From assembly GCF_054482595.1 (NCBI RefSeq), contig NZ_CM137008.1: 64,000 bases of DNA; one strand, 5' to 3'. The notes under the pieces were generated by a model. The model made no database searches. It had not been told where the DNA came from and saw nothing but the letters and a program-made list of their open reading frames with translations. The first letter of the stretch is position 1. Every line of letters starts with the position of its first letter. The position numbers and the translations under genes were made by a program. This document shows, piece after piece, positions 63,446 through 63,742 of this stretch.

Positions 63446-63563
63446 CAGAAGCGATCCTCTTATGAGATGTAGGGTGACATGGCGATGCTCATTTCGTAGC
63501 CATAATCTAAAAATATCTACATTTCTGAAAAATGCGCACAAAAGCGACATATTGTTTTCTTAT

Positions 63564-63580
63564 TGTGATCAAAAACAACA
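63564..63580. promoter_or_regulatory. CRP-like half-site (TGTGATCAAAAACAACA) in the csiD promoter region
   Basis: Good left half TGTGA, weak right half; about 127 bp upstream of the csiD ATG; csiD is known to be cAMP-CRP and sigma-S dependent. Confidence 0.3.
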
Positions 63581-63742
63581 AATTAGTAACATTTAACGTA
63601 GGGTATTAAGGCAAAGTGAGACAGGAAATGAATAACTAAAGCAACAGGTTAGGGGGAGTTACCATCAGAGAACAGATTATCTGGTCGATAAAAAACAGTA
63701 AATGGCTTCAATGCAAAATGACCGTTAGTAAACTAAACATAT

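Follow-up and report, generated by a model that had tools for sequence, protein, structure and literature searches.

The sequence TGTGATCAAAAACAACA, found at 63564..63580 on the plus strand of the window (i.e., the whole stretch of 64,000 nucleotides analyzed here), is very probably the site from which cAMP-CRP activates the sigma-S-dependent promoter of csiD, the gene also called glaH; CRP binding is documented in the literature for the K-12 form of this sequence and would extend, by comparison of the sequences, to the allele in the window. The CRP site of csiDp is already known, and no new CRP biology is involved. In a sequence-only reading of this DNA, the string had been noticed as a CRP-like half-site in the csiD promoter region (63446..63600), and both its letters and its coordinates were exact; the region is indeed the DNA directly 5' of csiD, which is encoded on the minus strand with the ATG at 63445. 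The center of the 16-bp core lies 126.5 bp from the A of this ATG, which fits the distance of about 127 bp given in that reading. Also, a good left half and a weak right half had been described, and the strengths stand as described: compared with the consensus of CRP sites (22 bp with two-fold symmetry, TGTGA-N6-TCACA), one half is perfect, the spacer is 6 bp, and the other half agrees in two of the five positions, a match weak enough to occur elsewhere by chance. The orientation, in contrast, had to be corrected; with csiD and its promoter lying on the minus strand, the left half is promoter-proximal, and the right half is promoter-distal. The features of the promoter region are collected in the table below.

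Coordinates of the csiD promoter region and its surroundings in the window, listed from the upstream gene toward csiD
Feature	Position	Strand	Remarks
Intrinsic terminator hairpin of the upstream alpha-amylase-family gene	63743..63770	minus	11-bp stem with 7 G-C pairs, then a T-rich tail
22-bp cAMP-CRP site of csiDp	63561..63582	minus	csiD-sense TTTGTTGTTTTTGATCACAATA; center 63571.5 = -68.5
Weak half ACAAC (csiD-sense GTTGT), promoter-distal	63575..63579	plus	2/5 vs TCACA
Single-base difference from K-12	63575	plus	A in the window vs G in K-12; alignment with MG1655
6-bp spacer TCAAAA	63569..63574	plus	
Perfect half TGTGA (csiD-sense TCACA), promoter-proximal	63564..63568	plus	ATCACA invariant in 41/41 promoters
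Conserved AAAACAAT block	63551..63558	minus	about -55 to -48, between the CRP site and -35; AAACA in at least 70% of representative loci
Candidate CsiR primary operator TTGTGCGCATTTT	63529..63541	minus	our match to TTGTN5TTTT
Candidate CsiR primary operator ATGTAGATATTTT	63510..63522	minus	our match to ATGTN5TTTT; 6 nt after TTGTGCGCATTTT, overlaps -10
Putative -10 hexamer TATTTT (-12..-7)	63510..63515	minus	placed from the deduced start site; inside the near-invariant ATGTAGATATTTTT (41 loci)
Deduced csiD transcription start site (+1, A)	63503	minus	K-12 2788927; arithmetic from -68.5 and center 63571.5; +/- 1 nt
csiD/glaH coding sequence	62468..63445	minus	325 aa + stop; list of open reading frames and annotation of XH990

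The source of the window is E. coli: the segment 63300..64000 was 100% identical to strain XH990 and approximately 96.6% identical to K-12. The start codon of csiD (63445..63443, minus strand) is preceded by AGAGGA at 63460..63455, and csiD is the first gene of glaH-lhgO-gabD-gabT-gabP. In the annotation of XH990, to which the window is identical over the 701 bases compared, the genes are arranged in one direction in the order of an alpha-amylase-family gene and then glaH-lhgO-gabD-gabT-gabP-csiR, in agreement with the operon csiD-lhgO-gabDTP named in the sequence-only reading. This annotation and the open reading frames thus put csiR downstream of csiD(glaH)-lhgO-gabDTP and the CRP site upstream. 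The csiD intergenic region spans 335 bp (63446..63780), and the coding sequence of the upstream alpha-amylase-family gene ends at 63781; the terminator of this gene, a strong hairpin, is predicted to insulate the csiD promoter from it. The upstream gene encodes a glycosyl hydrolase that is intact in the XH990 annotation (750 aa; 63781..64000 and beyond, minus strand), and its orthologue in K-12, ygaQ, is a pseudogene. An open reading frame of 44 codons (63462..63596, plus strand), antisense to the csiD promoter and 5' UTR and overlapping the conserved blocks of regulatory DNA there, is most likely spurious. A scan of 63300..64000 against Rfam gave no match.

In the RegulonDB list reproduced by Shimada 2011 (Table S4, PMC3105977), the curated cAMP-CRP activator site of csiDp is GTTGCTTTTGATCACA at position -68.5, and GTTGCTTTTGATCACA is the reverse complement of TGTGATCAAAAACAACA in its K-12 form. 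When the positions 63561..63582 were compared with the curated K-12 22-mer, TTTGTTGCTTTTGATCACAATA, the base at 63575 was the sole difference. The curated site therefore falls on 63561..63582; a location elsewhere in the interval would have spoken against the sequence-only reading, and the label of "tentative" attached there to the CRP call can be dropped, as the curated site is exactly at TGTGATCAAAAACAACA. Genomic SELEX with purified CRP also recovers the sequence of the csiD site, and the SELEX peak at 2.78688 Mb (U00096.2) carries the same 16-mer in the K-12 form (PMC3105977). In the text of the SELEX table, the columns of sequences and coordinates seem to be one row out of step, and the entry was hence identified by its coordinate; for this purpose, the ATG of csiD was placed at 2,787,007 in U00096.2, namely 2,788,985 minus an offset of 1,978 bp assumed between U00096.2 and U00096.3. 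As to regulation, Germer et al. are quoted in a passage of PMC2859248 for the activation by CRP at -68.5 of sigma-38-dependent but not sigma-70-dependent csiD transcription, and the glaH operon is described to be under the control of sigma-S, cAMP-CRP, Lrp, H-NS, and CsiR (PMC6265302); the literature likewise describes csiD expression as dependent on crp/cya and rpoS. No csiD entry was found in the portion of the supplementary files covered for one Crp ChIP-exo study, and a full-text literature search with the strings of the site and the promoter, in both orientations and in the window and K-12 forms, returned no relevant paper. Marschall 1998 and Germer 2001 are reportedly the primary sources for the CRP site of csiDp, and the footprint and start-site evidence is second-hand.

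Conservation among Enterobacterales points in the same direction as the curated entry and the SELEX peak, which together bear out the CRP site upstream of csiD. A genome scan for CsiD gave 80 loci, and 41 promoters, consisting of the enterobacterial loci together with the window and K-12, were used. Alignment of the 250 nt 5' of the ATG revealed strong blocks near the gene and no conservation beyond approximately 150 bp. ATCACA was present in all of the 41 csiD promoters, preceded by G in 39, and the distal half, of which the conservation was intermediate, stayed CRP-like (TGTnn) in more distant genera; indeed, it was nearer to the CRP consensus (TGTAA, TGTTT, and TGTAT; 9.5 to 13 bits) in Yokenella, Pluralibacter, Shimwellia, and Hafnia. 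The mean fraction of the majority base, taken over 15 loci that represent about 12 genera, was 0.44 upstream of the site, 0.56 in its distal portion, and 0.96 across GATCACAA. Furthermore, measured from the center of the site to the base that corresponds to the E. coli start site, the spacing took just two values among the 41 loci (about 12 genera), namely 68.5 bp (23 loci) and 69.5 bp (18 loci). The site likewise keeps the E. coli distance to the invariant -10 block, or one base more, in all 41 loci, which lends indirect support to the position of -68.5. Such a pattern of conservation and spacing is what would be expected for an activator site under positional constraint. We also noticed a Dam site, GATC (63567..63570), within the strong CRP half, with its G in 39 and the following ATC in all of the 41 loci; as the extended CRP consensus includes GATCACA, GATC need not have a role of its own.

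The core promoter was then placed relative to the CRP site. We infer the exact coordinate of the start site in the strain of the window, the -10 hexamer, the coordinates of the operators, and the region contacted by alpha-CTD. The start site is given with a margin of +/- 1 nt because the paper on RegulonDB v8 puts the CRP-activating position of csiDp at -69.5; it would result in a 5' UTR of 58 nt, and its coordinates retrieved only unrelated numbers in the literature search. The -35 position reads TGCGCA, with three of the six bases of the consensus, and no pair of -35 and -10 elements was found when the csiD strand was scanned with the sigma-70 consensus. Lack of such a pair would fit an activator-dependent promoter with a weak -35 and is uninformative on sigma-S. 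Placing the -10 element instead at CTACGAA, with C at -13, would set CRP at -85.5, against the curated -68.5, and was hence rejected. As for AAAACAAT, this block is plausibly a candidate alpha-CTD or distal UP half-site, a conjecture that derives solely from how Germer 2001 is titled; a literature search combining csiD and UP-element gave matches in reference lists only.

CsiR is known from hydroxyl-radical footprinting to occupy two primary sites, TTGTN5TTTT and ATGTN5TTTT, which are 6 nt apart (Knorr et al. 2018), and the two candidate operators in the window, TTGTGCGCATTTT and ATGTAGATATTTT, span the region from -35 to -10. A ChIP-seq peak of CsiR is located at 2786890 (U00096.2), approximately 117 bp 5' of the csiD ATG (PMC5217608), and ChIP-seq peaks of Nac and OmpR have also been observed upstream of csiD in K-12 (PMC5217608).

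Conserved stretches were also noted besides the CRP site and the primary CsiR sites. AAAATGTAGATATTTTTAGATTATGGCTACGAAATGAGCA (63486..63525, minus strand, about -22 to +18) was near-invariant in the 41 loci, more so than the first primary CsiR site, and its part 3' of +1, ATGGCTACGAAAT, is positioned exactly one 19-bp period past the two primary CsiR sites and may be a "secondary" CsiR site. Two secondary CsiR sites were left unassigned in Knorr 2018, where the footprint fragment starts inside the CRP site. A motif of (A/T)TGTTA(A/C)(A/T) was also found approximately 17 bp upstream of the center of the CRP site (TGTTA at 63587..63591 on the minus strand, about -88..-84) in most genera, including Escherichia, Citrobacter, Salmonella, Yokenella, Pluralibacter, Trabulsiella, and Hafnia (as TGTAA in the last); an upstream contact of alpha-CTD, Lrp or H-NS, and a CsiR-like TTGT element are the candidates for its role. 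Taking together ATGGCTACGAAATGAGCA at +1 to about +18, TGTTA(A/C) at about -86, and the distal half kept as TTTGTTG, we consider it an unlikely though conceivable reading that CsiR or another factor flanks and overlaps the CRP site through these extra cis-elements; if true, direct competition between the repressor and the activator would take the place of independent action at the core promoter and at -68.5. The deduced transcript, furthermore, begins with AUG GCU ACG AAA UGA, a leaderless mini-ORF of four codons (63489..63503, minus strand). All loci have its ATG, but not all have the stop; several Citrobacter loci read AAACGA here, and the frame continues to or into csiD. The conservation is thus at the level of nucleotides, and a coding role of the mini-ORF is doubtful. 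In the 5' UTR of 58 nt, no consensus pairs (0) were found among 22 sequences in the search for a conserved RNA structure, and its stability as a single sequence was not unusual (z-score 0.19).

Between the ATG and approximately 63660, the base at 63575 is all that distinguishes the window from MG1655, and a few more differences are found upstream of 63660 up to the terminator at approximately 63770; the K-12 base at 63575 is independently evident from the primer MS170 of Knorr 2018. In terms of the csiD-sense strand, the distal half is GTTGT in the window and GTTGC in K-12, and it also varies within E. coli (GTTGC, GTTGT, GCTGT, and ATTGC). One might suppose that this base measurably alters the affinity of CRP or the sigma selectivity, so that the regulation of csiD in this lineage differs from that in K-12: it is within the 16-bp core of the CRP site, and few genomes share the exact haplotype; among 5,426 complete E. 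coli genomes, the 61-mer of the window (63530..63590) is carried by 26 and the K-12 form by 2,627. We regard this supposition as very unlikely. Neither allele agrees with the consensus at this position, the fifth in the degenerate distal half, and the score on the CRP matrix changes by only 0.07 bits, from 8.30 bits in K-12 to 8.23 bits in the window. A third, divergent haplotype of the promoter (CD306 and EC69), which is shared by approximately 1,000 genomes with 90 to 95% identity and has TTTTGATCACAATAAGAAAACAATATG intact, also carries T at this position of the sense strand, as do E. albertii, E. whittamii, and several Citrobacter loci; among the 41 loci, it is the most variable base of the half-site (T in 16, C in 17, A in 4, and G in 4). 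The change at 63575 is hence regarded as neutral, with a predicted effect that is negligible.

It is highly improbable that GATCACA is an operator of another regulator, either an FNR-type protein or CsiR at a secondary site, with CRP playing a secondary part. TTGAT-CACA-ATAAG does agree with TTGATN4ATCAA in eight of ten positions, and TTGT-N5-TTGA, which is CsiR-like, overlaps the distal half; the unassigned secondary sites of CsiR and the footprint fragment of Knorr 2018, as well as the Nac and OmpR peaks described above, could be read in the same sense. Nonetheless, CACA, which would be the free spacer of an FNR site, is invariant, whereas the second FNR half varies (ATAAG, AAAAA, and AATAA) and the TT of TTGAT is not invariant among the 41 loci. 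An FNR site at TTGATCACAATAAG was rejected on these grounds, i.e., the invariant spacer and the variation of the second half and of the first T positions. It is also purified CRP with which the sequence was recovered in the genomic SELEX.

The motif itself, when taken alone, is not informative in the window. Matches to TGTGAN6TCACA with three or fewer mismatches numbered 163, against 208 +/- 14 expected from dinucleotide-preserving shuffles. A symmetrized weight matrix was also prepared from 68 CRP sites of RegulonDB (Shimada et al. 2011, Table S4 part 1), in which csiD was not included; the TGTGATCAAAAACAACA site scored 8.23 bits, with 7.1 bits being the median of the 68 known sites, and ranked 24th among 63,985 positions of the window, where 24 positions reached this score against 26.3 +/- 4.3 expected in Markov-1 simulations. 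The bare match at TGTGATCAAAAACAACA is no better than chance, and a tentative call is all that the sequence alone warrants; support for the CRP site comes from its top score in the intergenic region, the curated entry, the conservation, and the fixed spacing. We therefore give hardly any credence to the idea that TGTGA occurs here by chance in AT-rich promoter DNA, with CRP acting elsewhere or indirectly: while matches of equal quality occur at the chance rate and the distal half is as degenerate as described above, the curated entry and the SELEX peak both consist of exactly this sequence in its K-12 form, ATCACA is invariant at a fixed spacing across Enterobacterales, and the site has the top score on the CRP matrix in the 335-bp intergenic region, with no other position there scoring as well.

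The promoter in the window corresponds to K-12 csiDp (RegulonDB; Marschall et al. 1998, Germer et al. 2001) in its locus, 22-bp site, orientation, distance to the ATG, and core promoter, with 63575 as the only difference between the ATG and beyond the site. Compared with class I promoters such as lac (CRP at -61.5), csiDp is similar in having one CRP dimer 5' of -35, with activation presumed to proceed through AR1 and alpha-CTD, and in the site being a 22-bp pseudo-palindrome with a 6-bp spacer. In contrast, CRP is positioned at -68.5 in csiDp instead of -61.5, -71.5, or -82.5, one half of the site is strongly degenerate, and CRP serves the sigma-38 and not the sigma-70 holoenzyme (Germer 2001, as quoted in a passage of PMC2859248). 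The aer promoter (sigma-28, CRP at -49.5; PMC2859248) resembles csiDp in combining an alternative sigma factor with a non-canonical position of CRP but has a different sigma factor, a different spacing, and a different regulon.

These results suggest a scheme in which carbon starvation would raise cAMP and place a CRP dimer on 63561..63582, with the binding anchored by the proximal GATCACA and the degenerate distal half tolerated. From -68.5, CRP would recruit RNA polymerase via the alpha subunit's C-terminal domain, and this unusual position may favor the sigma-S over the sigma-70 holoenzyme at the poor -35. CsiR on its two primary operators would cover the core promoter until glutarate releases it, and transcription of glaH-lhgO-gabDTP would accordingly require cAMP-CRP, sigma-S, and the relief of CsiR repression by glutarate; Lrp and H-NS would also modulate the expression of csiD, as described in the literature. 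The identity, conservation, and spacing of the site come from the present analysis, and CRP binding, its position at -68.5, the sigma-S selectivity, and the CsiR operators are taken from the literature.

In conclusion, a textbook regulatory site proved to be recoverable by reading the sequence alone, and the promoter architecture of the operon for glutarate/GABA catabolism is intact in the strain of the window. The strong half and the spacing of 68.5 or 69.5 bp, which are fixed over about a dozen enterobacterial genera, are of modest comparative value, and the fixed spacing is in line with the claim in the literature that sigma-S selectivity at csiDp is set by where the activator site lies.
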